From a phage, in sequence record PZ445539.1: 37,196 nt of DNA, one strand, 5' to 3'. Position 1 is the first letter of the stretch. Every line of letters starts with the position of its first letter. The notes under the pieces were generated by a model. That model was not told the origin of the DNA. It ran no database searches and was given only the letters and a program-made list of their open reading frames with translations. Shown here piece by piece: positions 1,516 to 36,318 of the stretch. A program made the translations under genes and the position numbers.

Positions 1516-2789
1516 TGGAAGAACCTAAATACACGATTGACCTGCGAACCAATAACGGCTGGTGGGCAAGGCTGCAGTCCTGGTTTGTAGGCGGGCGTTT
1601 AGTCACCCCAAATCAGGGCTCACAGACGGGGCCTGTTTCGGCCCACGGACACCTGGGCGATTCATCCATTAATGATGAACGGATACTGCAAATTTCGACG
1701 GTTTGGCGCTGCGTGAGCCTGATTTCAACGCTCACGGCATGCTTACCGCTTGATGTCTTCGAAACCGACCAGAATGACAACCGCAAAAAAGTGGGTTTGA
1801 GCAATCCGCTGGCGCGACTGCTGCGCTACTCACCGAATCAGTACATGACCGCCCAGGAATTCAGGGAGGCCATGACGATGCAGCTCTGTTTCTACGGTAA
1901 CGCGTATGCACTGGTGGACCGCAACAGCGCGGGTGACGTGATCAGCCTTCTCCCGCTTCAGTCTGCCAATATGGATGTGAAACTCGTCGGAAAAAAAGTG
2001 GTTTATCGCTATCAGCGCGACAGCGAATACGCCGACTTTTCGCAGAGAGAGATTTTTCACCTTAAAGGCTTCGGATTCACCGGGCTGGTCGGCCTGTCCC
2101 CCATTGCTTTTGCCTGTAAATCGGCAGGTGTGGCAGTTGCGATGGAGGACCAGCAGCGAGATTTCTTTGCCAATGGCGCCAAGTCTCCGCAAATCCTCTC
2201 AACCGGAGAAAAAGTGCTAACTGAACAGCAGCGCTCGCAGGTCGAAGAGAACTTCAAAGAGATCGCCGGCGGTCCGGTTAAAAAACGCCTCTGGATTCTG
2301 GAAGCGGGCTTTTCCACATCGGCAATTGGCGTAACGCCGCAGGATGCCGAAATGATGGCGTCCCGAAAATTTCAGGTTAGTGAACTGGCGCGATTCTTTG
2401 GCGTACCGCCTCACCTTGTCGGCGATGTCGAGAAGTCAACGAGCTGGGGATCGGGTATCGAGCAGCAGAATCTCGGCTTCCTGCAGTACACGCTGCAGCC
2501 CTATATCTCCCGGTGGGAAAACAGCATTCAGCGGTGGCTTATTCCTGCTAAGGATGTTGGACGTATTCATGCTGAGCACAATCTCGACGGCCTGCTGAGG
2601 GGCGATTCGGCATCCCGCGCAGCCTTTATGAAGGCAATGGGAGAGGCAGGATTACGCACCATCAATGAAATGCGCCGAACGGACAACCTCCCGCCATTGC
2701 CGGGTGGCGATGTGGCAATGCGCCAGTCGCAATACGTGCCGATCACCGACTTAGGAACCAACAAAGAGCCCCGTAATAACGGGGCTTAA
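1512..2789 (+). CDS. portal protein (HK97-family-like)
   Basis: 425-aa ORF directly after TerL with overlapping start (GTG 1512 or ATG 1515); size and position typical of a portal gene. Confidence 0.85.
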   Translation: MMEEPKYTIDLRTNNGWWARLQSWFVGGRLVTPNQGSQTGPVSAHGHLGDSSINDERILQISTVWRCVSLISTLTACLPLDVFETDQNDNRKKVGLSNPLARLLRYSPNQYMTAQEFREAMTMQLCFYGNAYALVDRNSAGDVISLLPLQSANMDVKLVGKKVVYRYQRDSEYADFSQREIFHLKGFGFTGLVGLSPIAFACKSAGVAVAMEDQQRDFFANGAKSPQILSTGEKVLTEQQRSQVEENFKEIAGGPVKKRLWILEAGFSTSAIGVTPQDAEMMASRKFQVSELARFFGVPPHLVGDVEKSTSWGSGIEQQNLGFLQYTLQPYISRWENSIQRWLIPAKDVGRIHAEHNLDGLLRGDSASRAAFMKAMGEAGLRTINEMRRTDNLPPLPGGDVAMRQSQYVPITDLGTNKEPRNNGA

Positions 2790-2794
2790 TTTTT

Positions 2795-3484
2795 ATGGGG
2801 GCCGTAATGCCTGAAATCGTAAAAACGCTGTCTTTCGACGAGACAGAAATCAAATTCACCGGTGACGGGAAACAGGGGATTTTTGAAGGCTACGCCTCTG
2901 TTTTTAATAACACCGATTCCGATGGCGACATCATTCTGCCAGGGGCGTTTAAAAATGCACTGGCGAACCAGACCCGCAAAGTGGCGATGTTCTTCAACCA
3001 CAAGACGTGGGAGCTACCGGTTGGTAAATGGGACAGCCTGGCCGAAGACGAGAAAGGTCTGTATGTGCGCGGTCAGCTGACCCCAGGACACAGCGGCGCC
3101 ACCGACCTGAAAGCGGCAATGCAGCACGGTACCGTTGAGGGGATGTCGGTTGGCTTTTCTGTTGCGAAAGACGATTACAGCATCACTACCACCGGCCGCA
3201 TTTTTAAGAATATTCAGGCCCTGCGTGAAATCAGCGTTTGTACCTTCCCGGCCAACGAACAGGCTGGCATTGCAGCCATGAAAAGTGTCGATGGCATTGA
3301 AACGATCCGTGATGTGGAGAACTGGCTGAGGGATTCAGTCGGGCTCACCAAATCACAGGCAGTTGGGCTAATAGCCCGGTTTAAGTCAGCGATTCGGAGC
3401 GAGTCCGAGGGCGACGGAAACGAAGCACAAATCAACGCTCTGCTTCAGAGCATCAAATCTTTCCCTTCTAATTTAGGTAATTAA
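2795..3484 (+). CDS. prohead maturation protease (HK97 gp4-like)
   Basis: 229-aa ORF between portal and major capsid genes; alternative start at 2807 has a better GGGGG ribosome-binding site. Confidence 0.8.
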   Translation: MGAVMPEIVKTLSFDETEIKFTGDGKQGIFEGYASVFNNTDSDGDIILPGAFKNALANQTRKVAMFFNHKTWELPVGKWDSLAEDEKGLYVRGQLTPGHSGATDLKAAMQHGTVEGMSVGFSVAKDDYSITTTGRIFKNIQALREISVCTFPANEQAGIAAMKSVDGIETIRDVENWLRDSVGLTKSQAVGLIARFKSAIRSESEGDGNEAQINALLQSIKSFPSNLGN

Positions 3485-3486
3485 TT

Positions 3487-4644
3487 ATGTCTGAACTCGC
3501 TCTCATTCAAAAAGCTATCGAAGAGTCCCAGCAGAAAATGTCCCAGCTTTTCGATGCACAGAAAGCAGAAATCGAAAGCACGGGTAAGGTATCCAAACAG
3601 CTGCAGTCGGACCTTGCGAAAGTACAGGAAGAACTGACCAAATCCGGCACTCGCCTCTTCGATCTTGAGCAGAAACTGGCCTCCGGTGCCGAAAATCCGG
3701 GTGAGAAGAAATCCTTCTCCGAACGCGCAGCGGAAGAACTGCAGAAGTCCTGGAACGGCAGCAAAGGCAGCTTCGAGGCGAAAACCTTTAACAAGTCGCT
3801 GGGCAGTGATTCTGATTCTGCAGGCAGCCTGATCCAGCCGATGCAGGTTCCAGGCATCATCATGCCGGGCCTGCGCCGTCTGACCATTCGTGATCTGCTG
3901 GCGCAGGGCCGAATTTCCAGTAACTCCCTGGAATACGTCCGTGAAGAGGTGTTTACCAATAACGCCGATGTGGTGGCCGAGAAAGCGCTGAAACCTGAAT
4001 CGGATATTACCTTCAGCAAGCAAACCGCGAACGTGAAGACCATCGCCCACTGGGTGCAGGCGTCACGTCAGGTTATGGACGATGCGCCAATGCTGCAGTC
4101 ATACGTCAACAACCGCCTCATGTACGGTCTGGCGCTGAAGGAAGAAGGCCAGCTGCTGAACGGCGACGGTACCGGGGATAACCTGGAAGGTCTGAACAAA
4201 GTGGCAACCGCCTACGACACCTCGCTGAATGCCACTGGCGACACCCGCGCTGACATTATCGCTCACGCCATTTATCAGGTGACCGAATCTGAGTTTAGCG
4301 CTTCCGGTATCGTCCTGAACCCGCGCGACTGGCACAACATTGCGCTGCTGAAAGACAATGAAGGCCGTTATATTTTCGGCGGCCCTCAGGCGTTTACCAG
4401 CAACATCATGTGGGGGCTGCCGGTAGTTCCGACTAAGGCACAGGCCGCCGGTACCTTTACGGTGGGCGGTTTCGATATGGCCTCTCAGGTGTGGGATCGC
4501 ATGGATGCCACCGTGGAAGTCAGCCGTGAAGACCGCGATAACTTCGTGAAAAACATGCTGACCATCCTGTGCGAAGAGCGCCTGGCGCTGGCGCACTATC
4601 GCCCGACGGCAATCATCAAGGGCAGTTTCTCTTCTGGCTCATGA
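3487..4644 (+). CDS. major capsid protein, HK97 fold, with N-terminal delta (scaffold) domain
   Basis: 385-aa ORF; N-terminus MSELALIQKAIEESQQKM... and overall sequence closely match my recollection of HK97 gp5; coiled-coil N-terminal region. Confidence 0.93.
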   Translation: MSELALIQKAIEESQQKMSQLFDAQKAEIESTGKVSKQLQSDLAKVQEELTKSGTRLFDLEQKLASGAENPGEKKSFSERAAEELQKSWNGSKGSFEAKTFNKSLGSDSDSAGSLIQPMQVPGIIMPGLRRLTIRDLLAQGRISSNSLEYVREEVFTNNADVVAEKALKPESDITFSKQTANVKTIAHWVQASRQVMDDAPMLQSYVNNRLMYGLALKEEGQLLNGDGTGDNLEGLNKVATAYDTSLNATGDTRADIIAHAIYQVTESEFSASGIVLNPRDWHNIALLKDNEGRYIFGGPQAFTSNIMWGLPVVPTKAQAAGTFTVGGFDMASQVWDRMDATVEVSREDRDNFVKNMLTILCEERLALAHYRPTAIIKGSFSSGS

Positions 4645-4650
4645 TGGAGG

Positions 4651-4672
4651 GGGCGGGGTGACCCGCCCTTTT
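4651..4672 (+). terminator. intrinsic terminator-like hairpin after the capsid gene
   Basis: GGGCGGG-gtga-CCCGCCC stem-loop followed by TTTT. Confidence 0.55.
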
Positions 4673-4677
4673 AACGT

Positions 4678-5004
4678 ATGGCGATAGATGTTCTGGATGT
4701 AATTGGCCTCAGCCTGTTTAAGCAGCAGATTGAATTTGAGGAAGACGACAGGGACGAGCTGATCACCCTGTACGCTCAGGCAGCTTTTGACTACTGCATA
4801 AGCTGGTGCGATGAACCAGCTTGGAAAGTTGCAGCTGATATTCCTGCAGCCGTTAAGGGCGCCGTTCTCCTTGTCTTTGCTGACATGTTTGAACACCGCA
4901 CCGCGCAAAGCGAAGTACAGCTATATGAGAACGCTGCAGCAGAACGCATGATGTTCATCCATCGCAACTGGCGCGGTAAATCTGAACCTGAGGAGGGCTC
5001 CTGA
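4678..5004 (+). CDS. head-tail connector protein (gp6-like DNA-packaging/connector)
   Basis: 108-aa acidic ORF immediately after the capsid gene; position-based call. Confidence 0.55.
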   Translation: MAIDVLDVIGLSLFKQQIEFEEDDRDELITLYAQAAFDYCISWCDEPAWKVAADIPAAVKGAVLLVFADMFEHRTAQSEVQLYENAAAERMMFIHRNWRGKSEPEEGS

Positions 5005-6185: not shown

Positions 6186-6656
6186 ATGACCAGTAAGTAT
6201 GAAGTTACAAAGGGGATGACCTTTGCCGTCTCCGACGCACCGGTAACCGCTGAGGATTTTAACGCCTCAGGTTTCCCGGGGGCTGGCATTACCTGGCTGG
6301 AAGCGGCCTGTGCAACAAAGGAGATCACCTTCACCGGCGGGCAGAAAGGGGATATCGACGTAACCACGCTTTGCTCAACTGAACAGGAGCAAACCAACGG
6401 CCTCGCCGCGCCAGCTGAAATGAGCATTACCCGTAACTGGGTTGGCGATGAAGCAGCACAGGAGGCACTGCAGACCGCTTACGAAAATGACGAACTGCGC
6501 GCGCTGCGTGTGGTGTTCCCGTCTGGTAATGGTTTCTACGTGCTGGTGGAGGTACGCCAGAGCTCATGGTCTGCTGCAACATCTTCCGTTGTTGGCGCTA
6601 CCTATTCTCTGCGTGTACGCGGCAAACCTAAACGCATCTACGCGTCTGGTTCCTGA
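6186..6656 (+). CDS. major tail (tube) protein
   Basis: 156-aa ORF with GGAG ribosome-binding site, bracketed by hairpins, directly upstream of the G/GT chaperone pair. Confidence 0.7.
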   Translation: MTSKYEVTKGMTFAVSDAPVTAEDFNASGFPGAGITWLEAACATKEITFTGGQKGDIDVTTLCSTEQEQTNGLAAPAEMSITRNWVGDEAAQEALQTAYENDELRALRVVFPSGNGFYVLVEVRQSSWSAATSSVVGATYSLRVRGKPKRIYASGS

Positions 6657-7433: not shown

Positions 7434-10400
7434 ATGGCAACGCTGCGCGAGCTAATCATCAAAATTTCGGCGAACTCATCTTCTTTCCAGTCTGAGATCG
7501 CCAGAGCGTCCCGCATGGGAACCGATTACTACCGCACTATGGAACAGGGCGGGAAAAAAGCTGCAGCGGCCACGCGTGAAACTCAGCGCTCTTTGGCTGA
7601 CCTGAACTCTCAGCTTGCAACAGTACGTTCCTCTGCTGCCGGGCTTGCCGGTGCGTGGGCTGGTGCATTTGCCACGCATCAGCTGATTCAGTTTGCCGAC
7701 ACGTGGAACCAGTTGAATGGGCGTCTTCGCCTTGCGTCCTCTTCCAGTGAGGATTACGTGCAATCCCAGCGTGTACTGATGGAGATTAGCCAGCGGACCG
7801 GAACATCCCTTGAGGCAAACAGCAACCTGTACAGCAGAATTGCGCAGTCCCTGCGTGATGCCGGTTACGCTTCTGCTGACGTCGCAAAAGTTACGGAAAC
7901 CGTAGCAACCTCACTGAAGCTGTCTGGCGCCAGTACCGAAGAGGCGAGTTCTGTTATCACCCAGCTTAGCCAGGCACTTGGCTCAGGCGTTTTGCGAGGC
8001 GAAGAATTTAACTCCATCATGGAGAACGGCGGCCGCCTGGCGAAACTGCTGGCTGATGGGCTGGGTACCAGTGTTGGTGGCCTGCGAAATATGGCCAACA
8101 ACGGCGAGCTGACGACCAACAAGATCGTCCCGCTGCTGACCAACGTTGAGATCCTCCGTAAAGAATTCGACACCCTTCCTGCTTCCATCAGCGGATCTGC
8201 ACAGAAAGTGCAAAACGCCTTCCTTGCATGGGTTGGCGGGGCGAACGATGCGGTCGGCGCATCCTCAACGCTTTCCGGCGTGCTGGATGGTCTTGCGAAT
8301 AACATCGATGATTTGGCAAATACAGCCGGTATTCTGGTTGGTGTTGGCCTCGCCCGTTATTTCGGCAACATGGTTGGCAGCGTCGCTCAGTCAACCCGGG
8401 CAGTGCTCGCTAATACGGCCGCCGAGGTCGCACTGGCTCAGGCTCAGGTTCGTGGCGCTCAGGTTAGCGTTGCTGCTGGTCGCCAGGCTGTTTATCGCGC
8501 TCAACAGGCGCGCGCAGCGGCGACGAGTATTGAGGCTCAGATTGTCGCTGAGCGTAATCTTGCTGCTGCTCAGGCATCACTGAATACTGCGCTTGCTGGC
8601 AGGACTTCGGCCGTTAATAACCTCACCAATACAGCCTCGGTGATGTCCCGCCTGGGTAGTGGCGTTCTTGGCATTCTCGGTGGCTGGCCTGGAGTGATTA
8701 TCGGTGCTGGCGCTGCGATGTATGGCCTTTATCAACATACCCAGCAGGTGCACCGTGAGGCGGTAGGTTTTGCCAACAACCTTGACGAGATCAACACCAA
8801 GCTCCAGCAGATGTCGGTGCTTGGCCTGCGTTCGACCGCGGCTGATGCCCGTACATCTTTGCAGGCGCAAAAACAGGACCTGGCCGACCTCGACTCTCAG
8901 ATCGCGAAGGTGAAAGACAGCCTTAAGGCGGTTGACCAAATCCAGCAGGACTATAACCGCCATCCGACGCTGACCCTGATCAATACTTTCATGGACCAGG
9001 CCGACATCACGGCCAAAAATATCGAGCTGACCGATAAGCTGAACCAGCTGGAGTACCAGCGCGAACAGGCAGCCTCAAAAGTCGAGCAAACGCAGAAGCT
9101 GGTAAACCAGGCCAGCGATCTGGCCACGCAAAAGGCTATCGAACAGGCTGGCGCCGTCTCTATCCTGAAAGGTGCGTATGACCTGCTTAACCGCTCAATG
9201 TCAGCGACCGCTGGCGCCAAGCCGCCGCAATATGCCGGGCCCGTCGTTTCACTGGCGAACGCAACGCCTCAACAGCAAACCGCACTGGAGCGCTCACGCC
9301 GAGATAACGAGCTGGCCAGCCTAAGCGGTTTAGAGAAACTTCATCAGCAGCACGTGTATGAAGCAGAAGACCTGAAGCTGACGGGAGCACTTTACACCCA
9401 GTACATTTACAACAAGGATCAGGCAGCCAAAAAAGATGCAGCGGCTGCGGAGGCAAAAAAAACCTCTACCGCCGCCTCGAAAGCACAGAGTAAAGCCGAG
9501 CGTGAAGCGGCCAGCACCGCCGAACAGTATTCCCGGAAAATGGCCGATCTGAGTGTGGCTATCGACGTGCAACGCGTCAGGGCGACGGAAGGTGAAAAAG
9601 CCTCGGAGCTTTACGCTGCATCGCACCAGGCAGGCACTAAATGGACCGACGAGCAGCGCAAGGCGATCCAGGCATCATCAGCAGAGCTGGCAAAATGGAC
9701 GCAAAAAGCCGACGAGAACGTGCGCAAGCAGCGCGAACAAGCTGATGCCCTGAAGGATTTAACTGAAGCGGCCCGAAAGTTCAGGGATGAGGCGACGCTG
9801 ACAACCGAAACCGCAGGCATGAGTGATCGCCAGCGCAGCCGGTTCGACGAGACGCAACAGATCGACCGTGTTTTTGCTAAAGCAGGTGGCGACAAAAGCA
9901 CCCAGGCTGTGATAGCTCGAAGCGAAGCCCTTGATGCTCTGGATAAGAAATACAAGGCTATTGCAGCAGCTGAAGCGGATTGGATGTCCGGTGTATCACG
10001 CGGCTATGCCAACTGGTTTGATGAAATCAGTAACGTATCCGGAACGGTTTCTGACGGGGTGAAAACCACACTCGACAGCGCGTTTGGTAACGTCACCTCA
10101 ATGCTCGAAGGCAATAAAGTTAGCTGGAAATCGTGGGGTATTTCTGTCCTGCAGATCATTGAAAAAGTGGCGCTGCAGATGGCGGTGGTCAGCGCGATGG
10201 GTGGTGCCTCTTCCGGTTCTGGCATTTTTGGCTCACTCATCGGCAGTGTGGGCAGTTTCTTCGGGGGCGGGGCGGGAGCATCAGCCAGCACCGGTACAGC
10301 GGTTTCCAGTTACGGCTCGAGCTTCCAGTTTAATGCCAAAGGCGGCGTTTATGACTCTCCATCCCTGAGCGCTTTCAGTAATGGGATCGTCAGAAACCCA

Positions 10401-10721
10401 ACAATGTTCGCTTTCGCAAAAGGCGGGGCCGGAATCATGGGCGAGGCTGGCCCGGAGGCAATCATGCCGCTGACCCGCGCGCCGGATGGTTCTCTCGGTG
10501 TTCGTGCGGTCGGAGGTGGCGGCGGTCAGCCCGTATCGTCGGCGCCACAGGTTTATATCACTATCGATGGCAACGGCAACACCTCAACGCAAACCTCACC
10601 AGGCCTTGAGCAATTTGGTGCCGAAGTCGGGAAATTTGTCGATCAGCGATATAAGCAGAATGTAATGCGTGATATCCGCCCCGGCGGTGACATCTGGAAC
10701 GCAATGAAAGGAACCCGATAA
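7434..10721 (+). CDS. tail tape measure protein
   Basis: 1095-aa ORF, Ala/Gln-rich coiled-coil character, Gly-rich C-terminal region; follows G/GT pair. Confidence 0.9.
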   Translation: MATLRELIIKISANSSSFQSEIARASRMGTDYYRTMEQGGKKAAAATRETQRSLADLNSQLATVRSSAAGLAGAWAGAFATHQLIQFADTWNQLNGRLRLASSSSEDYVQSQRVLMEISQRTGTSLEANSNLYSRIAQSLRDAGYASADVAKVTETVATSLKLSGASTEEASSVITQLSQALGSGVLRGEEFNSIMENGGRLAKLLADGLGTSVGGLRNMANNGELTTNKIVPLLTNVEILRKEFDTLPASISGSAQKVQNAFLAWVGGANDAVGASSTLSGVLDGLANNIDDLANTAGILVGVGLARYFGNMVGSVAQSTRAVLANTAAEVALAQAQVRGAQVSVAAGRQAVYRAQQARAAATSIEAQIVAERNLAAAQASLNTALAGRTSAVNNLTNTASVMSRLGSGVLGILGGWPGVIIGAGAAMYGLYQHTQQVHREAVGFANNLDEINTKLQQMSVLGLRSTAADARTSLQAQKQDLADLDSQIAKVKDSLKAVDQIQQDYNRHPTLTLINTFMDQADITAKNIELTDKLNQLEYQREQAASKVEQTQKLVNQASDLATQKAIEQAGAVSILKGAYDLLNRSMSATAGAKPPQYAGPVVSLANATPQQQTALERSRRDNELASLSGLEKLHQQHVYEAEDLKLTGALYTQYIYNKDQAAKKDAAAAEAKKTSTAASKAQSKAEREAASTAEQYSRKMADLSVAIDVQRVRATEGEKASELYAASHQAGTKWTDEQRKAIQASSAELAKWTQKADENVRKQREQADALKDLTEAARKFRDEATLTTETAGMSDRQRSRFDETQQIDRVFAKAGGDKSTQAVIARSEALDALDKKYKAIAAAEADWMSGVSRGYANWFDEISNVSGTVSDGVKTTLDSAFGNVTSMLEGNKVSWKSWGISVLQIIEKVALQMAVVSAMGGASSGSGIFGSLIGSVGSFFGGGAGASASTGTAVSSYGSSFQFNAKGGVYDSPSLSAFSNGIVRNPTMFAFAKGGAGIMGEAGPEAIMPLTRAPDGSLGVRAVGGGGGQPVSSAPQVYITIDGNGNTSTQTSPGLEQFGAEVGKFVDQRYKQNVMRDIRPGGDIWNAMKGTR

Positions 10722-10723
10722 CT

Positions 10724-11062
10724 ATGGCCATTGAAACTTTCACCTGGTGCCCACGAATTAACGCGGAGGCTGATACAAATTTCCGCGTCAGGAAAGCACA
10801 GTTTGGTGATGGATATGAGCAGGTTTCAGGGGATGGATTGAACACCAGAACCCAGCAATGGACGCTCAACTTCACTGGCAACGAAACCTACATTTCTGCC
10901 ATTAAATCTTTTCTCGACAGGCATGAAGGAACGAAAGCCTTTCAATGGAAGCCACCGCTCGAACCTTTGGGTTTGTATCGTTGCGAAACGTATAAACCCA
11001 CCGGGCTTGGCGCGGGGAAATTCAACCTTGAAGCAACATTCATCCAGGCATTTAAACCATGA
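10724..11062 (+). CDS. minor tail protein (lambda gpM-like)
   Basis: 112-aa ORF directly after tape measure; size and order as in lambda M. Confidence 0.75.
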   Translation: MAIETFTWCPRINAEADTNFRVRKAQFGDGYEQVSGDGLNTRTQQWTLNFTGNETYISAIKSFLDRHEGTKAFQWKPPLEPLGLYRCETYKPTGLGAGKFNLEATFIQAFKP

Positions 11063-11817
11063 GCTTAAACGCAGATTATCAAAAGCTGGAATCCGGAAAC
11101 GATGTTCGTCTGATTGAGGTGGACGGTTCTTCCTTTGGGCTAACGGACGTTCTCCGCTTTCACAATTACAGCATTCCCCACACAGAAGCGGAAATCATCG
11201 CCGCTGGTGGGGATGAGTCCAAGCTTCCGGCGAAACCAATCTGGTGGCAGGGAAATGAATATGCCGCCTGGCCATATCAACTGGAAGGTCTGGAGAAATC
11301 AACCAGTGGGAGCAATGCAACGCCATCCCTGACGGTTGCGAACATCGAAAGCTCCATTTCAGCCCTGTGTCTTGCGTATGACGATCTGCTGCAGGCGAAA
11401 GTCACTATTCACGACACAAAAGAGAAATATCTCGATGCCAGAAATTTCGCAGACGGCAACCCCACAGCAGACCCGACTCAGGAAAAGCTGCAGGTCTGGT
11501 ATATCGACGGGAAAACGGGCGAGCTTGCCGGCGAAACCGTTGAATTTGTTCTGTCCAGCCCGATGGATCTGCAGGGGCAAATGATCCCGACGCGACAGCT
11601 TCATTCCCTGTGTACCTGGTGCATCCGGAATAAATATCGTACCGGCGACGGCTGCGACTATGCCGGCACCCGCTATTTCGAAAAAAACAACAACCCGGTA
11701 AGCGATCCGTCGCTGGATGAATGCAACGGCACGCTGACGGCCTGCAAACTCCGATTCGGCGAAAATAACGAACTCTCGTTTGGTGGCTTCCCGGGCACGT
11801 CTTTGATCAGGAGTTGA
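11059..11817 (+). CDS. minor tail protein (lambda gpL-like)
   Basis: 252-aa ORF with C-terminal Cys cluster (CTWC...C...C) as in gpL. Confidence 0.75.
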   Translation: MSLNADYQKLESGNDVRLIEVDGSSFGLTDVLRFHNYSIPHTEAEIIAAGGDESKLPAKPIWWQGNEYAAWPYQLEGLEKSTSGSNATPSLTVANIESSISALCLAYDDLLQAKVTIHDTKEKYLDARNFADGNPTADPTQEKLQVWYIDGKTGELAGETVEFVLSSPMDLQGQMIPTRQLHSLCTWCIRNKYRTGDGCDYAGTRYFEKNNNPVSDPSLDECNGTLTACKLRFGENNELSFGGFPGTSLIRS

Positions 11818-11818
11818 T

Positions 11819-12529
11819 ATGCGTCAGAAAACCATCGATGCGATTATGGCGCATGCTGCAGCTGAATATCCTCGCGAGTGTTGCGGCGTGGTAGCGCAGA
11901 AAAGCCGTGTTGAACGTTATTTCCCGTGCCGGAATCTTGCCGCGGCGCCGGAGGACAATTTTGTCCTTTGCCCCGAAGACTATACAACTGCTGAGGACTG
12001 GGGAACGGTGATCGCCATCGTTCACAGTCATCCTGACGCCACGACACAACCGAGCGAATTGGATAAAGCGCAATGCGATGCAACGCTTTTGCCGTGGCAC
12101 ATCGTGAGCTGGCCTGAGGGGGATTTACGCACCATCCAGCCGCGTGGGGAGCTGCCGCTGCTGGAGCGTCCGTTTGTGCTTGGACACTTCGACTGCTGGG
12201 GGCTGGTAATGAGCTATTTCCGGCAAACGCATGGTATCGAGCTCCACGATTACCGGGTGGATTATCCCTGGTGGGAAAACGACTATCCGGACAACTTCTA
12301 TCAGGATTGCTGGTATGAGTGCGGATTCCGTGAATTCGACGGGCCACCGAAACCCGGCGATATGGTGATTATGCAGGTCCAGGCCGATAAGTGGAATCAC
12401 GCGGGAATTCTGCTGGAGGGAAATATGCTGCTGCACCACCTGTACGGACATCTGAGCCAGCGCGTGCCGTATGGTGGCTACTGGCAGGAAAGGACGATGA
12501 AGGTTCTACGATATAAGGACCTGTGCTAA
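11819..12529 (+). CDS. tail tip assembly protein (lambda gpK-like; JAMM/MPN plus NlpC/P60-type domains)
   Basis: 236-aa ORF with JAMM-like motif AIVHSHPD and C-terminal Cys/His region. Confidence 0.75.
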   Translation: MRQKTIDAIMAHAAAEYPRECCGVVAQKSRVERYFPCRNLAAAPEDNFVLCPEDYTTAEDWGTVIAIVHSHPDATTQPSELDKAQCDATLLPWHIVSWPEGDLRTIQPRGELPLLERPFVLGHFDCWGLVMSYFRQTHGIELHDYRVDYPWWENDYPDNFYQDCWYECGFREFDGPPKPGDMVIMQVQADKWNHAGILLEGNMLLHHLYGHLSQRVPYGGYWQERTMKVLRYKDLC

Positions 12530-12560
12530 CCTTTTGTAAAACAAAAAAGGGGTTAGGGAT

Positions 12561-12908
12561 ATGAGGAAATTTCTTTCGATATTGGCGTGTAGCCTGATTA
12601 TTGTTGGTTGCTCACCTTCGGAAAAGGATTTTATTGACATGGGGGAATCCTTAGTTAAAGACACCCTCAAAGATCCTGATAGCGCTAAGTTTGAATCATT
12701 TTTCCGTGATTTCGGAGAAAATACTGGATATGTTTGCGGTTATGTGAATGCTAAAAATTCATACGGCGCATATACGGGTAAAAAACCATATTATGTGCGG
12801 ATTGAGGTCAAAGATGGAAAGGTCAATGATCATGGACCAATCATCATTATTAATGACCAAGACCAAAAGAAAATTGATTCATATGAGTCAATCTGTCAAA
12901 AGGACTGA
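12561..12908 (+). CDS. lipoprotein, unknown function (moron)
   Basis: Signal peptide with lipobox LIIVGC; strong ribosome-binding site; AT-rich codon usage unlike flanking tail genes. Confidence 0.7.
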   Translation: MRKFLSILACSLIIVGCSPSEKDFIDMGESLVKDTLKDPDSAKFESFFRDFGENTGYVCGYVNAKNSYGAYTGKKPYYVRIEVKDGKVNDHGPIIIINDQDQKKIDSYESICQKD

Positions 12909-12914
12909 TGTGCG

Positions 12915-13250
12915 ATGAAAAAGATTATCCTCCCAATTTTTATCTTTCTGCTGATGGGGTGTTCTGTTTCCTCACTGGAAGAACAAAAACCTATTCTATC
13001 AGAGCATTCAACAAAAACTGTTGAGGAAGTTAACCGTTGCCTTGCTCCTAAATGGGTGGAACTACGATCTTCAAGCTCCAGCATACCCACTGAGTCAGGA
13101 TACAAAATCACAGCATCTGACGATATATTCGGTGCTCTTTCAGTAGTGAATATCGATAAATCAGCGACAGGCGGAAGCGATATAAAGGTTTATGCCGTCG
13201 CGAAAGGTTGGAACGACCACTGGGCTACGGCCGCCAGATCATGTCTTTGA
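12915..13250 (+). CDS. lipoprotein, unknown function (moron)
   Basis: Signal peptide with lipobox LLMGC; AT-rich; followed by terminator. Confidence 0.7.
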   Translation: MKKIILPIFIFLLMGCSVSSLEEQKPILSEHSTKTVEEVNRCLAPKWVELRSSSSSIPTESGYKITASDDIFGALSVVNIDKSATGGSDIKVYAVAKGWNDHWATAARSCL

Positions 13251-18883: not shown

Positions 18884-20269
18884 ATGCTTTATAACACCGG
18901 CACCATCGCTATTAACGGAAATACCGCAACCGGCACCGGCACAAACTGGACGGCACCCGCCAGCCAGGTTCGCGCTGGCCAGACGATTATTGTCATGTCT
19001 AACCCGGTTCAGATGTTCCAGATTTCATCCGTGAACAGCGCCACGTCAATGACGGTAACGCCTGCTGCATCACCGGCGCTGAGCGGCCAGAAGTATGGAA
19101 TTCTTGTGTCGGACAATATTTCGGTCGACGGACTGGCGCAGGCCATGTCTCAGCTCATCAAAGAGTATGACGAGAATATCGGTGCATGGGAGACGTTCGC
19201 TACTACCTCAGCGAACCAGATTATCACTGTAACCATCAACGGTACCTCCGTGAATATTCCGGGTATTGGTGGCCTGGCTCGAAAAGGGGCAAACAGCGAT
19301 ATCACGGAGCTGAAAGGGCTCACTACTGCGCTTTCTATTGCGCAGGGCGGGACCGGGGCAACGAACGCTGCAGACGCTCGCTCAGGTCTAGGATTTACAA
19401 ATGGCGTAGTACCAGTATCTCTTGGCGGCACCGGCGCAACGAATGCTGCCGACGCTCGCTCAAACCTCGTTTTGGGAAGTAGTGCTACCAGGGACGCATA
19501 TAGCTCTTCTGGCAAAATGTTGTCAGAAGGAGATTTTGGGTTAGGCGGGGCGGCGTCAACCAACGGAAATGAGCAGGCATGCGGATTTTACAGAGCAGTT
19601 GCTGGTGCCAGCGGAAACCCATTAAGTAATTCAGGCGTCATACTCAACCACCAGGTCTACGGCGCTAATGCATTCACAAGAATTGCCACTTCCTATGAGC
19701 TACCTGTTCCCAGGATTTTTGTATCAACAAAGGTGAACTCTACCTATTACCCATACTATGAATTTTACACTACAGGTAACACTACTAAGGCCAGCGATGG
19801 GACACTTAAGGCCGCATCACCGGTCGCTCGCATTGTTACATCACAGGAGGAATGTCAGCGCGCGGATATCGACGAACCTGGCTTTATTTGGTGCGGCTGC
19901 GGAACGGCGAACGCCGAGGCCGAAGGAATAACTCTTTCTCGTCTCGAAGCGGGAGTTTACGTGCTGACCGGTTCTGCAGGGCTGGCATCGGAAGGCTGGA
20001 AGTTGCTGCCGCCAATGGACCCAGGTGGAATGGGAGAACTGGGCGTTGTTGAGGCAGAGCAAAACGACAATGGCGAGCTGACAATCCGCCTGTTCAAGAG
20101 CAAATACATGTTGAGCGATGAAGGTGAGATCATCAAAACCAAAGGTGAACTGATGGATGTCCCGGCAAACAGTTGGATCGATGTTCGCCTGGATATGCCA
20201 GAGAGCAGCATTTGGAATCATCGCCAGAAAGAAGCCATGGAACAAGCGGATAATAATTCTGGTTCTTAA
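18884..20269 (+). CDS. side tail fibre protein with tail-fibre repeats
   Basis: 461-aa ORF; tandem GGTGATNAADARS.LG repeats typical of phage tail fibre repeat motif; GAGG ribosome-binding site. Confidence 0.8.
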   Translation: MLYNTGTIAINGNTATGTGTNWTAPASQVRAGQTIIVMSNPVQMFQISSVNSATSMTVTPAASPALSGQKYGILVSDNISVDGLAQAMSQLIKEYDENIGAWETFATTSANQIITVTINGTSVNIPGIGGLARKGANSDITELKGLTTALSIAQGGTGATNAADARSGLGFTNGVVPVSLGGTGATNAADARSNLVLGSSATRDAYSSSGKMLSEGDFGLGGAASTNGNEQACGFYRAVAGASGNPLSNSGVILNHQVYGANAFTRIATSYELPVPRIFVSTKVNSTYYPYYEFYTTGNTTKASDGTLKAASPVARIVTSQEECQRADIDEPGFIWCGCGTANAEAEGITLSRLEAGVYVLTGSAGLASEGWKLLPPMDPGGMGELGVVEAEQNDNGELTIRLFKSKYMLSDEGEIIKTKGELMDVPANSWIDVRLDMPESSIWNHRQKEAMEQADNNSGS

Positions 20270-30973: not shown

Positions 30974-31399
30974 ATGTTCGGTATCTTCAAAAAGAAAGCA
31001 CGTAAAGCCGTTACTGAAGTTAAGAAAATGGAAAACCGCGATGCGGTTGAGGCGACTGTATGGGGCGCTTACTCCATTGCGTATGCCGACGGTACCTGCG
31101 ACGCGAAAGAAATCGCCACGCTGGAAAAAACTATTTCGGCACTGCCTGCCTTCGCGCCGTTCGCCGGTGAGATCGCACAGATGAGTAGCAATATTCGTGC
31201 TCGTTACGAAGCTTCACCGCGTTCTGCTAACGCTCAGGCGCTGCGCGAACTGGCTGATGTTGCGGGTACAAATGACGCTGTTGATGTTCTTTGCCTGTGT
31301 CTCGATGTAGCTGACAACGACGGTATCGGTGAAGAAGAAGAGAAACAGCTGAAGAAAATCGCTCAGGCGCTGCAGCTTCCACTGGATCAGTACCTGTGA
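30974..31399 (+). CDS. TerB-like domain protein (first gene of late transcript)
   Basis: 141 aa; two ADG/ADNDG-containing helical repeats (IAYADGTCDAKEIATLEK ... LDVADNDGIGEEEEKQLKKIA) as I recall for the TerB fold; AAGGAAA ribosome-binding site. Confidence 0.55.
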   Translation: MFGIFKKKARKAVTEVKKMENRDAVEATVWGAYSIAYADGTCDAKEIATLEKTISALPAFAPFAGEIAQMSSNIRARYEASPRSANAQALRELADVAGTNDAVDVLCLCLDVADNDGIGEEEEKQLKKIAQALQLPLDQYL

Positions 31400-31551
31400 T
31401 CGGAAAACTGCGCTGGGCAGCCGCCGGGATTTTTTTGTTCCTGGTGGTTGCTATCGACTTCACCAGCAAAATGATGTCCATCCTCGCTGATGGCGTGCTG
31501 GTGGCCGGAGTGATTGCGCTGCTCTGGCCCCTGATTAAATCCAGTAAATAA
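31396..31551 (+). CDS. small membrane protein (51 aa), tentative
   Basis: GTG start overlapping the TerB-like stop; single hydrophobic helix; below ORF-track cutoff. Confidence 0.3.
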   Translation: MIGKLRWAAAGIFLFLVVAIDFTSKMMSILADGVLVAGVIALLWPLIKSSK

Positions 31552-33220: not shown

Positions 33221-33362
33221 GGTTGTGGATACGGCTTGCGACTGGGTTAAACCCATCTACGGAACGGATCACGACTGGGATGTGCTGGACCGCCAGACGA
33301 AGAAAAACATCTTGGCGCATAACAAAGCGTGGCAGGCTAATTGCCACGCAACAACGGATTAA
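33141..33362 (+). CDS. o-spanin (Rz1-like outer-membrane lipoprotein), overlapping i-spanin in another frame
   Basis: Signal peptide with lipobox LIVSC; begins inside the Rz-like gene in a different frame and extends past it. Confidence 0.6.
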   Translation: MYSRLLTICLAMMLIVSCAQTGPVKVEVVDTACDWVKPIYGTDHDWDVLDRQTKKNILAHNKAWQANCHATTD

Positions 33363-33736
33363 TCTCTCATGTAGGCTGCTTTTCTTGCTGCGCGGTACCC
33401 TTCTTCTTCCTCGCAGCTTTCACATAGCATACTATCTTGTTGATAGCACTGAAGCAGTCTTTCGTTTTCAATCACACTTGGGCAATCGAAGTAAGTACCA
33501 TTCTCTCCATCATATTCGTCAAACCAACCTTGGCAAGGCACGTTTTCTATGAGCGGGAGTAAAGCATTTTCATAGAGATACAATTGCTTTTCTGAAAGGT
33601 TGTCAAGATTGCCTTGGCCTACAATTTTTTGGGAAACACCCCAAACATTGTCTTCATTTAGTTTGTTATCGTTTGCAGACTCTCGAATAAGTTCTTCTTT
33701 GTTTTGGACTAAATATCTAAGCACTTGAATACTCAT
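33359..33736 (-). CDS. hypothetical protein, Cys-rich acidic C-terminus (antisense moron)
   Basis: 125-aa AT-rich ORF on the minus strand between lysis genes and glycosyltransferase gene. Confidence 0.45.
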   Translation of the reverse strand: MSIQVLRYLVQNKEELIRESANDNKLNEDNVWGVSQKIVGQGNLDNLSEKQLYLYENALLPLIENVPCQGWFDEYDGENGTYFDCPSVIENERLLQCYQQDSMLCESCEEEEGYRAARKAAYMRD

Positions 33737-33950
33737 AAAACCTCCATCTTATGTGTTGATACCATTAAGGAAAAACCATCCGAGAATAGCCTTCAAATCA
33801 GCCCGTAATCAAATCTATTAGCTCATTGTTTGATCTACAAGCGCATCGCACGCGCACATCAAAGAAAGACTTTCAGCTGTGAGCCTGGGCAAACCGCTAA
33901 CTTTCGGCGGCTTTGCCGTGCGACAGGCTCACGCCTAAAAGGAAAATCAA

Positions 33951-35408
33951 ATGCAGGTCACTATTAATGGTGTCCAGTATGCACCCGCCTGTGCAATTTC
34001 ATCGCGGATCGGCGTTGCCATTTCGACGCATCAGCGCTCAGACGTTTTAAAACGTGCACTCGAACAGCACATGAAGCATCTTCCCGCTGGCGCGCGAGTG
34101 GTGGTTGTAGATGATGGTTCAAAACCTGCAGCGGTAGTTCCCCACGGCGTGCAGCTGCTTCGCCATGAAACTTCACTCGGCATTGTTGCTTCGAAGAACG
34201 CCAGCCTGTCAGCCCTGATGGATGCCGGGTGCGAGCATCTTTTTCTGTGGGATGATGATGCCTGGCCCATCGCCGACAACTGGCATCTTCCCTACATCGA
34301 ATCACCCGAGCCACACCTGGCTTACCAGTTTCTCGATTTGGCTGGTCGCAATAAGCTGAATGACCTTTCGGTGCTTTACCGTGACGATCAGCATGTGGCG
34401 TACACCGGACAGCGCGGCGTGATGCTGTATTACCACCGTAGCGCCATCGAGAGGGTGGGCGGATTCGATCCGGTTTATGGTCGCGGCATGTACGAGCACA
34501 GCGACCTCGCCTTGCGCATCCATAACGCTGGACTGACTACGTGGGCTTACGCTGATGTCCTCGGTTCAGACAAGCTGATTCATTCCCTCGATGAGCATGA
34601 AGCGGTGGAGCGTTCGGTACCGAGGCCCGACCGCCAGGCGCTGGTGGAACGTAATGTTAAGATCCACAATGAACGACGTGATACCGGCTTTACCGGTTAT
34701 GTTGAATATCGGCGTCAGCGCGACGTGGTTATCACTACGTTACTGACCAGCCAGCCTGACCCTCAACGCGGTACGAAAATGATGGCCTCGCCTGACATGC
34801 TGACCAAGTGGGCGGCCTCGCTTCGGAATTGTGGGCGTATTGCGCTGGTGGATGAATTACTGACGGCCCCGGCAGATGTTGAGCTGTATCTCGTACCTGA
34901 CGTAAAGATGAATGTCTATTTCCGGCGCTGGCTGCACATCTGGCAGCACCTGCGCGATCACCCTGAATATCGTTTCGTCTGGTGTACAGATGGTACCGAT
35001 GTCGAAATGCTCCGCGCACCGTGGGAAGAAATGCAGCCCGGGAATGTTTACGTCGGTTCTGAACCGAAGACATACGCCGACACCTGGGCGAAACAGAATC
35101 ATCCTGAGCGTATCTATCAGGAATTCATTGAAGCGCACCGCGGCGATGTGATGCTTAACGCTGGTCTGCTGGGTGGCACCCGCGCTGATGTAATGGCGTT
35201 CGCTCACGGCATCATCCGTCTTTACTACCGGATCGAGAGTTATCGTTTCTGGAAGAAAGAACAGGTTGGCGCCGCGGTGGGTGACATGCTGGCGTTCGGT
35301 ATTGTCGCGCATTCATTCGCTGACAGGCTGGTCACCGGCCCTCTGGTACATACCGTTTTCAAAACTGATGGTATCGGTAAGGAGGCCGCATGGTGGAAAC
35401 ACAAGTGA
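33951..35408 (+). CDS. putative two-domain glycosyltransferase (N-terminal GT2-like GT-A fold; C-terminal second nucleotide-sugar transferase-like domain)
   Basis: N-terminus has GT2-like pattern: VAISTHQRS...VVVVDDGS...LWDDDAW (DxD)...GGFD; 485 aa; no transmembrane segments seen. Confidence 0.55.
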   Translation: MQVTINGVQYAPACAISSRIGVAISTHQRSDVLKRALEQHMKHLPAGARVVVVDDGSKPAAVVPHGVQLLRHETSLGIVASKNASLSALMDAGCEHLFLWDDDAWPIADNWHLPYIESPEPHLAYQFLDLAGRNKLNDLSVLYRDDQHVAYTGQRGVMLYYHRSAIERVGGFDPVYGRGMYEHSDLALRIHNAGLTTWAYADVLGSDKLIHSLDEHEAVERSVPRPDRQALVERNVKIHNERRDTGFTGYVEYRRQRDVVITTLLTSQPDPQRGTKMMASPDMLTKWAASLRNCGRIALVDELLTAPADVELYLVPDVKMNVYFRRWLHIWQHLRDHPEYRFVWCTDGTDVEMLRAPWEEMQPGNVYVGSEPKTYADTWAKQNHPERIYQEFIEAHRGDVMLNAGLLGGTRADVMAFAHGIIRLYYRIESYRFWKKEQVGAAVGDMLAFGIVAHSFADRLVTGPLVHTVFKTDGIGKEAAWWKHK

Positions 35409-35980
35409 AGTTTGTTGTGGTTGGCCATCACTCTCGCATAGGTCATGCGCAACGACTTGCCGCGCTGCTGGATGCTCATCTGCTTATTGATGACGGTGAC
35501 CACGGCGCGAACTGGAATCATCGCCGCGCGCTGGAGTGGGCTGCATGCCAACCCTGCAGGGTAGTGGTGTTGGAAGACGACGCGCTTCCTGTGCAGGGCT
35601 TCACCGATAAGGTAACTGAATGGCTGGTGCGCTTCCCTGAAGAGATGCTGAGCTTTTACCTCGGTACCGGCCGACCGCCGCAGTATCAGAAAGAGATTGC
35701 CGGAATGCTGGTTGAATCAGACAGAGTAAACGCTGATTACCTTGTTCTTAGCAAACTGATTCACGGCGTATGTTACAGCCCTCCTCAGGGCAGGCTGGCG
35801 CGCATGCTTAACGCATGGAATAAAACGCTGGCAGCTGATTACGCCGTTGGTGAGGCATTCGGTGGCCGGGTTATTTATCCGTGTTACTCGCTGGTGGATC
35901 ACGCTGACCTCCCGACGGTTGAGCGTCACCCTGACAACGAGCCGAGGACGGAACGCCGCCGCGCATGGAGACTGGCATGA
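35390..35980 (+). CDS. hypothetical protein, possibly GT-A-like transferase
   Basis: 196 aa; strong AGGAGG ribosome-binding site; FVVVGH...VVVLEDDA pattern reminiscent of a GT-A DxD core; weak call. Confidence 0.4.
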   Translation: MVETQVKFVVVGHHSRIGHAQRLAALLDAHLLIDDGDHGANWNHRRALEWAACQPCRVVVLEDDALPVQGFTDKVTEWLVRFPEEMLSFYLGTGRPPQYQKEIAGMLVESDRVNADYLVLSKLIHGVCYSPPQGRLARMLNAWNKTLAADYAVGEAFGGRVIYPCYSLVDHADLPTVERHPDNEPRTERRRAWRLA

Positions 35981-36318
35981 ACAAAGAGCCCCGCGTATAT
36001 GGCAGCCGATGGGATAAGGCCCGTCTGCGTTTCCTGCAGCAGCACCCACTATGTGTGATGTGCGAGCAGCAGGGGCGCATTACCCCAGCAACGGTGGTTG
36101 ACCATATTGAGCCCCACAAACTCAAAGATGCGCTTAAGTCAGGTAACGCGCTGGCCATATCGAAAGCACAGCTCCTGTTCTGGAGTAAAGAGAACTGGCA
36201 GCCACTGTGCAAAGCGCATCACGACTCAACGAAACAGAGAATGGAGAAGAGCGGCGCGGTAATAGGCTGTGATGCCAACGGCTACCCGCTCGATCCTGCG
36301 TCTCACTGGAGCACGTAA
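35977..36318 (+). CDS. HNH endonuclease (packaging-associated, HK97 gp74-like position)
   Basis: CxxC...DHIEPH...N...CKAHHD HNH motifs; immediately upstream of terS region. Confidence 0.85.
   Translation: MNKEPRVYGSRWDKARLRFLQQHPLCVMCEQQGRITPATVVDHIEPHKLKDALKSGNALAISKAQLLFWSKENWQPLCKAHHDSTKQRMEKSGAVIGCDANGYPLDPASHWST

Follow-up and report, generated by a model that had tools for sequence, protein, structure and literature searches.

What do two adjacent genes for soluble glycosyltransferases do when they lie between the lysis and packaging genes of a lambdoid phage? The question is raised by positions 33,951 to 35,980 of the phage sequence PZ445539.1 (37,196 nucleotides; this whole stretch is referred to below as the window). 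The window matches PP925823.1, the complete genome of Escherichia phage LMessi, at 100% identity when reverse-complemented and rotated, and LMessi is a lambdoid siphovirus of the HK97/HK022 type. The two genes are called GT1 and GT2 here, names that apply to LMessi's genes and are distinct from the CAZy family GT2. A first-pass annotation, made from the sequence alone, had recognized a glycosyltransferase (GT) pair, offered three roles for it (glycosylation of virion proteins, modification of phage DNA, or alteration of a host surface polymer) and regarded it as a candidate for an undescribed system. We think it likely that GT1 and GT2 constitute a phage-encoded, cytoplasmic virion-protein glycosylation module of the kind found in Che8 and Corndog. 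Of the three roles, we favor the first.

The assignment of both proteins as glycosyltransferases agrees with their structural models, their PHROG families and their conserved motifs. GT1 belongs to phrog_1579 (E 6e-252) and GT2 to phrog_854 (E 6.5e-73); these matches, together with hundreds of conserved homologs for each protein, argue that the pair is not a product of chance. An AlphaFold model of GT1, built with 90 diverse homologs, has a predicted local distance difference test (pLDDT) score of 95.6 and contains two Rossmann-like glycosyltransferase-A (GT-A) domains, as the first-pass annotation had anticipated in describing a second transferase-like C-terminal half. The N-terminal domain (about residues 18-250) is predicted to be an inverting GT-A domain of the CAZy GT2 type with VVDDGS and FLWDDD, and joins a GT-A fold to a DXD metal/nucleotide-sugar motif, as in CAZy GT2. 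Pfam PF00535 scores 20.1 bits against this end of GT1, below its gathering score of 23.3 and hence sub-threshold; precomputed PF00535 matches are present on some close GT1 homologs, and the GT1 family profile matches CAZy GT2-type PDB chains at E 5e-7 over its N-terminal half only. The C-terminal domain (about residues 252-485) is also GT-A-like, with conserved DPQRG, D347-x-x-D350-V (TDGTDVE), NAGxxGG and DM motifs and a terminal HK. It had no match in Pfam or the PDB, profile searches included, and alignment to GT2 with hhalign revealed no relationship (probability 0.15%).

GT2 is modeled as one minimal GT-A domain (pLDDT 79) carrying a DXD-type VVLEDDA motif, in which EDD is invariant, an invariant SLVDH and, at the C-terminus, a conserved basic tail, RRRAWR. 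A Pfam scan found nothing for it, and a PDB sequence search gave no match for either GT1 or GT2 as single sequences. Generic viral GT-A matches were all that a BFVD structure search returned. The suggestion that GT2 belongs to GT25 (PF01755) found no support, since no GT25 profile matched and the closest structural similarity lay elsewhere. The first-pass motifs are all present in the translations (ISTHQRS, VVVVDDGS, DDD and GGFD in GT1; VVVLEDDA in GT2), and the absence of transmembrane segments is supported by maximum Kyte-Doolittle 19-residue means of 1.51 for GT1 and 0.75 for GT2. At the level of predicted structure, the models establish glycosyltransferase folds with intact catalytic motifs for both proteins.

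The relatives of the pair lead to mycobacteriophages. A tblastn search of annotated phage genomes with GT1 returned 605 records, 568 of which are Mycobacterium phages with full-length matches of 43-47% identity; the match to Sbash gp87 has 43% identity over 485 amino acids (E 1e-131). No significant similarity was found between GT1 and Che8 gp108 or gp109. GT2 is 34% identical to Che8 gp110 over 192 amino acids (BLASTP E 3e-24; family hidden Markov model [HMM] E 7e-32), 33% identical to Sbash gp88 (HMM E 3.7e-31) and related to Corndog gp38 (HMM E 6e-23), so that a gp110-type GT is the component common to Che8, Corndog, Sbash and LMessi. Gene order is also shared. The right genome end of Sbash (Cluster I) encodes gp87 (a GT of 478 amino acids), gp88 (a 'glucosyltransferase' of 208 amino acids) and gp89 (HNH), and the succession of two-domain GT, gp110-like GT, HNH, genome end and terminase is the same in LMessi and Sbash. 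At the right end of Che8, three GTs (gp108, gp109 and gp110) are followed by gp111 and gp112 (HNH), and in Corndog the GT genes (gp36-gp38) immediately precede the gene for the capsid. These comparisons establish homology and synteny with the mycobacteriophage cassette. The pair can consequently no longer be called an undescribed system, as GT2 is homologous to Che8 gp110 and Corndog gp38 and the gene order is that of Sbash.

Virion glycosylation has been described for this group. According to PMC12363180, PMC12619734 and PMC11256854, which cite Freeman et al. 2023, the virions of Che8, Corndog and Myrna are glycosylated and the glycan coat lowers antibody binding. In PMC12363180 and PMC12619734, again citing Freeman 2023, Che8 gp110 and Corndog gp38 are described as glycosyltransferases essential for glycosylation, and the glycans are located on the C-termini of capsid and tail-tube subunits. 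Cryo-electron microscopy papers on Douge, Corndog and HFTV1 contained no detail on glycan sites.

It is at the C-termini of virion proteins that LMessi provides its own evidence. Four of its 62 proteins end in Gly-Ser, where 0.34 would be expected (binomial P 4e-4). Each of the four belongs to the virion: capsid, putative tail tube, head-tail adaptor and tail fiber (Table 1). Across enterobacterial loci anchored on GT1, the same dipeptide ends 32/32 capsid homologs, one class of which is only 37-46% identical to the LMessi capsid, 22/22 tube homologs (down to 48% identity) and 10/10 adaptor homologs, and the residues preceding it vary. It is written with all four glycine codons and with both serine codon families (AGY and TCN), which argues that it is kept at the protein level and is more than inherited DNA.

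Loci anchored on the capsid gene instead (160 in total) allow phages with and without the GT genes to be compared, a locus being counted as lacking them where at least 8 kb of upstream sequence contained none. Capsids ending in Gly-Ser occur in 87 of 91 loci with GT genes and in 7 of 20 without (Fisher P 4.7e-9, kinship ignored); among tube proteins, 56 of 59 and 3 of 8 end this way. A clade lacking the genes has capsids ending in ...PAGA or ...SGGQ and tubes ending in ...TVTVA or ...TVTIN, and in a further GT-less locus (L316) the capsid is 95% identical to that of LMessi but ends in ...KGTFSAD, with a tube ending in ...TLTIS. In one GT-carrying locus (L333), capsid (...EQTS) and adaptor (...EETS) have both switched from Gly-Ser to Thr-Ser. 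The mycobacteriophages present a similar picture: Che8 ends its capsid in ...NKTGS and its major tail protein in ...YSDGS, Corndog its capsid in ...PLVGS and a tail protein in ...KGDS, and Sbash its tube in ...AGDGS, whereas the GT-less L5 and Bxb1 have ...DATEA, ...VPEG and ...VVSVG, with no terminal serine. As judged from these sequences, terminal Gly-Ser is associated with the GT genes and is selectively maintained on virion proteins when they are present; that the dipeptide is the real acceptor is what we infer from this pattern.

LMessi resembles the Che8 and Corndog cassettes in several respects. Both have a soluble GT-A enzyme of the gp110/gp38 type that adjoins HNH/terminase or capsid genes, at least one further GT beside it (GT1 in LMessi), and capsid and tail-tube proteins ending in Gly-Ser or X-Ser. 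LMessi differs in its Gram-negative enterobacterial host and its HK97/HK022-type lambdoid nature, in the tagging of adaptor and tail fiber, in having the two-domain GT1 as the putative extending enzyme rather than the gp108/gp109 of Che8, and in that glycosylation of its virion is a prediction from sequence. The closest overall match is the gp87-gp88-gp89 arrangement of Sbash, whose capsid, unlike that of LMessi, ends in ...ETAS. Many mycobacteriophages, PMC, SG4 and Job42 among them, carry a glycosyltransferase of ~475 amino acids. We know of no direct experiment on Sbash, PMC, SG4 or Job42.

More distant parallels come from other viruses. PBCV-1 A064R, Mimivirus R655/R699 and STIV A197 are, like GT1 and GT2, soluble virus-encoded GT-A enzymes, often of several domains; they act in the cytoplasm on virion components and are among the best structural matches to the LMessi proteins. 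The resemblance is at the level of the fold only (6-15% identity), and acceptors, glycans and gene arrangement are different.

The arrangement of the LMessi genes bears on when the pair would be expressed. On the plus strand, the large terminase, portal, protease, capsid, connector, tail and tail fiber genes are followed by integrase and early genes, then by Q, the lysis genes (holin, endolysin, Rz), a divergent open reading frame (ORF) of 125 amino acids, GT1, GT2, HNH, a small ORF and the small terminase subunit. The first-pass annotation had both reading frames exactly right, as it did their position in the late region, between the lysis genes and HNH/terminase and away from int. It had also proposed translational coupling, which is consistent with a GT1/GT2 overlap of 19 nucleotides and an AAGGAGG placed 5 nucleotides before the GT2 ATG. 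The GT2 stop codon and the annotated HNH start codon share an ATGA at 35977, and through this overlap the GT genes are joined to the late operon for packaging.

Table 1. The glycosyltransferase genes of LMessi, adjoining features and the virion proteins with terminal Gly-Ser; coordinates refer to the window.
Feature	Position	Strand	Description
GT1	33951..35408	+	485 amino acids; soluble two-domain glycosyltransferase
GT2	35390..35980	+	196 amino acids; soluble single-domain GT-A glycosyltransferase; homolog of Che8 gp110, Corndog gp38 and Sbash gp88
HNH endonuclease (HK97 gp74-type packaging accessory)	35977..36318	+	Pfam HNH E 2e-5; phrog_2323 E 3.5e-53; annotation
5' leader, 110 bp, with long imperfect hairpin at about 33878-33934	33841..33952	+	Leads into the ribosome-binding site and start codon of GT1
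Major capsid protein (HK97 gp5-type, 385 amino acids)	3487..4644	+	Ends ...KGSFSSGS-COOH; proposed acceptor
Head-tail adaptor Ad1 (108 amino acids)	4678..5004	+	Ends ...EPEEGS-COOH; possible additional acceptor
Putative major tail-tube protein (156 amino acids)	6186..6656	+	Ends ...KRIYASGS-COOH; proposed acceptor
Tail fiber protein (461 amino acids)	18884..20269	+	Ends ...DNNSGS-COOH; possible additional acceptor

Based on these lines of evidence, LMessi probably sugar-coats its own particle, and a working scheme can be put forward. GT1 and GT2 would be transcribed late, together with the HNH, terminase and head genes, an expectation that derives from their packing on the same strand and their coupled start and stop codons. 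Host cytoplasmic nucleotide sugars would be the sugar source. As a gp110-type enzyme, GT2 most likely recognizes the free Gly-Ser-COOH of capsid and tail-tube subunits, and probably those of the adaptor and tail fiber too; it is the proposed initiating enzyme, with the serine at the C-terminus receiving the first sugar. GT1, which has one GT-A domain of the inverting CAZy GT2 type and one of an uncurated type, would then lengthen the glycan, adding more sugars or linkages. The outcome would be a particle-surface glycan coat that alters recognition by antibodies, proteases or surfaces. We infer the acceptor residue, which sugars are used, how the two enzymes share the work and what the phage gains. 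A broader proposal, that free Gly-Ser-COOH is a minimal portable O-glycosylation acceptor tag common to phages of Actinobacteria and Enterobacteria, including the HK97-type adaptor and fiber, seems to us evenly poised between right and wrong.

Several points weigh against a virion-glycosylation module. The seven GT-less loci counted above retain Gly-Ser, and the GT-less phages HK022, HK140 and mEpX2 retain ...SSGS on capsids that are 96% identical; such cases may stem from a mobile cassette that was recently gained or lost beside near-identical head genes. Conversely, one GT-carrying locus (L245) ends in ...GGGA. As the compared loci are related, the P-values overstate their independence, and only about three independent lineages lacking both the genes and the tag can be named. 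The tube protein owes its assignment to its location, with the tail terminator on one side and the tail chaperones on the other, and not to a family match. GT1 occurs by itself in SaltyDalty, CharmingMan and two further loci (L033 and L034), and GT2 by itself in HK633, which fits poorly with a strictly obligate two-enzyme pathway. A promoter/terminator scan detected neither element directly upstream of GT1, leaving gene arrangement alone as the basis for late expression. Finally, the results of Freeman et al. 2023 (Cell Host Microbe 31:1216) are taken from the citing papers, and a literature search found no experiment on LMessi or any enterobacterial phage; likewise, nothing was found about these GT genes in the literature on HK542, mEp390, ENT39118 and LMessi.

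The genes might instead serve the lysogen, as a moron pair for lysogenic conversion or superinfection exclusion that modifies a host envelope glycan (lipopolysaccharide [LPS] core, O-unit or enterobacterial common antigen) at the cytoplasmic membrane face. PHROGs classes both families as 'moron, auxiliary metabolic gene and host takeover', variable genes make the interval from Rz to the packaging genes a cargo hotspot, and soluble or peripheral GT-A enzymes are common among the glycosyltransferases for LPS and O-units, with such enzymes among the structural neighbors of the LMessi proteins. The best-known phage systems of this sort, GtrABC of P22, SfV and Hf4s, likewise comprise phage-encoded GTs of temperate enterobacterial phages, and GtrB has a CAZy GT2-type catalytic domain. 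They require, however, a GtrA flippase, a membrane-anchored GtrB and a polytopic GtrC, and are located beside int/att and expressed in lysogens, whereas the LMessi proteins have no transmembrane segments, no gtrA- or gtrC-like gene is annotated in the genome, and the pair is far from int. The contrast that the first-pass annotation drew with membrane enzymes of the GtrA/GtrB type is thus upheld. A role in the envelope is also difficult to reconcile with homologs of GT1 (43-47% identity) and GT2 (about 33-34%) in Mycobacterium phages, the envelope glycans of those hosts being entirely different, or with the translational coupling to the HNH packaging gene and the failure to find an upstream promoter. 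Moreover, a GT1 relative (55% identity), followed by a translationally coupled GT2 homolog (HMM E 1e-26), is encoded by a large and apparently virulent phage that also has PhoH, dCMP deaminase and rIIA/rIIB-type genes, so the function is probably not tied to lysogeny or to temperate phages. Envelope modification would leave the co-variation of capsid, tube and adaptor C-termini with GT presence unexplained, and we consider it quite unlikely. Glycosylation of modified phage bases against restriction, in the manner of the T-even phages or of 5mYOX-associated GT-A enzymes, we consider very unlikely. Phage GT-A enzymes that glycosylate 5-hydroxymethylcytosine do exist (bioRxiv 10.1101/2023.12.21.572611), a distant fusion relative, P0267, weakly matches a TET-associated GT family (E 4e-4, sub-threshold), and a place beside the packaging genes would suit modification before packaging. 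Nevertheless, the LMessi annotation contains no C5-methyltransferase, TET/5mYOX, dCMP/dUMP hydroxymethylase or similar enzyme, and with no hydroxymethyl-base pathway LMessi DNA would offer no hydroxyl acceptor. Pfam scans of ten unannotated LMessi proteins found none of these enzymes either; since nine of these proteins matched nothing in Pfam, this absence is weak evidence. The homologs named in the literature are reported, in PMC12363180 and PMC12619734, to act on proteins.

It is also conceivable that the pair modifies a protein outside the virion, either a host protein (for takeover or anti-defense) or another phage protein, with Gly-Ser being an unrelated feature of the structural-module lineage. 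Bacterial effectors include GT-A enzymes that modify host proteins, and the persistence of Gly-Ser in GT-less phages such as HK022 would fit such a coincidence. The PADLOC models of known defense systems gave no match for GT1, GT2 or the upstream ORF of 125 amino acids, which leaves room for a new role. The tag recurs, however, on unrelated capsid and tail proteins in four groups with a gp110-type GT (LMessi-type, Che8, Corndog and Sbash), is missing from L5, Bxb1 and enterobacterial lineages that lack the GT genes, and has been exchanged in concert on capsid and adaptor within L333, all of which makes a non-virion target unlikely. Least of all do the genes look like decaying or inactive cargo, that is, remnants without current function in E. 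coli phages. Some relatives have one gene only and others have homing endonucleases inserted between the two, as decay might produce, but both frames are full length, the catalytic motifs are invariant in hundreds of homologs (78-97% identity) from many genera, and linkage is kept in 74/80 loci. We regard this possibility as very unlikely.

Returning to the distribution of the proposed virion-glycosylation pair, close homologs of GT1 and GT2 within that 78-97% range occur widely among prophages of Enterobacter, Citrobacter, Cronobacter, Klebsiella, Salmonella, Pantoea and E. coli. The pair is also present in HK542, mEp390, Cronobacter phage ENT39118, ECP1 and Fostie; its GenBank annotation in these phages reads 'glycosyltransferase' and 'glucosyltransferase'. 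The co-occurrence of GT1 and GT2 in 74 of 80 related contigs, which are viral, is maintained despite variable insertions between them. In an exhaustive search, 250 representative clusters at E<1e-30 retained the two-domain architecture of GT1, down to about 30% identity. A protein of 216 amino acids beside the terminase of a distant phage (L088) was considered as a GT2 homolog and rejected, as it is a stand-alone copy of the GT1 N-domain type. A metagenomic phage contig (L089) encodes a 958-amino-acid protein (10001-12877) in which a GT25-type domain is fused to a GT1-like two-domain enzyme, showing that GT1-like enzymes as a family take on additional glycosyltransferase domains; the same contig carries genes for an AAA_22 ATPase, a Methyltransf_24 protein and a protein resembling HTH repressors.

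The regions upstream of GT1 and between GT1 and GT2 hold variable cargo, comprising HNH/AP2 homing endonucleases and small reverse-strand ORFs. Genes for HNH/AP2-type homing endonucleases were found between GT1 and GT2 in 14 related loci and upstream of GT1 in 10 (for example at 7503-8099 in L041 and 1662-2333 in L074), and these insertions mark the site as an insertion hotspot. A third conserved enzyme was sought between and upstream of the GT genes; none was consistent across loci. In SaltyDalty, CharmingMan and Fostie, the gene just 5' of GT1 encodes a mosaic protein with weak similarity to PF09327 (tail-tip-fiber) and a conserved C-terminal ...RPGGxIxxxxKR; such tail-tip-fiber-like genes were located at 2612-3163 (L005), 2612-3550 (L006), 1610-2392 (L007) and 4112-4978 (L003). 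They were rejected as candidate substrates of the GTs, since LMessi lacks them and they have no Gly-Ser ends.

The leader 5' of GT1 folds as RNA at -42.3 kcal/mol (z -2.7). Its hairpin has no U-tract and is in this respect unlike an intrinsic terminator, and Rfam gave no match. Copies 94-96% identical to it occur, unannotated, in many E. coli chromosomes 5' of other cargo genes, and in relatives it precedes whichever cargo gene stands first. In E. coli H6 it lies 5' of a 'tail tip fiber protein' gene, related to the mosaic genes above, within the tail module of another prophage. In appearance, the leader could be the junction of a mobile cassette or an element for RNA processing.

Elsewhere in the window, the divergent 125-amino-acid ORF (33359-33736, minus strand) lies in a stretch of lower GC content between Rz and GT1. 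It encodes an acidic protein with cysteine-containing motifs that belongs to phrog_12178 (unknown function). A copy, 58% identical, is present in only 1 of 80 related loci (L042), and the ORF is likely an independent moron. Between Q and holin, in the late operon, lie genes for a small membrane protein of the TciB-like kind and for a TerB-like protein labeled 'tellurite resistance' (30974-31551, plus strand). Two small plus-strand ORFs in the tail module (12561-12908 and 12915-13250) have lipoprotein-type signal peptides (…LIIVGCS and …FLLMGCS) and may be morons for surface or superinfection-exclusion lipoproteins. The AT skew reaches 0.338 at 9001-10000, within the tape-measure gene (7434-10721), a value that is very high and unlike the remainder of the genome.

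As far as we found, mycobacteriophages are the only phages shown to glycosylate their virions with enzymes of their own, and the glycans are reported to act as an antibody shield. The LMessi pair would represent a mycobacteriophage-type virion glycosylation cassette in HK97-like coliphages, phages for which we found no earlier report. If free Gly-Ser-COOH is indeed a portable acceptor tag, appending two residues would make any protein a substrate in E. coli, and a two-residue tag that works in the E. coli cytoplasm would be a useful tool for glyco-engineering. The system would be open to study in the best-understood model of capsid assembly and in a tractable host, and would be relevant to phage therapy of Enterobacteriaceae through immune recognition and stability. 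For the phages themselves, it would mean that classical lambdoid coliphages can bear a glycan coat, and that glycan-coated virions are much commoner, extending to HK97/HK022-type phages of E. coli, Enterobacter, Klebsiella, Citrobacter, Cronobacter and Salmonella.

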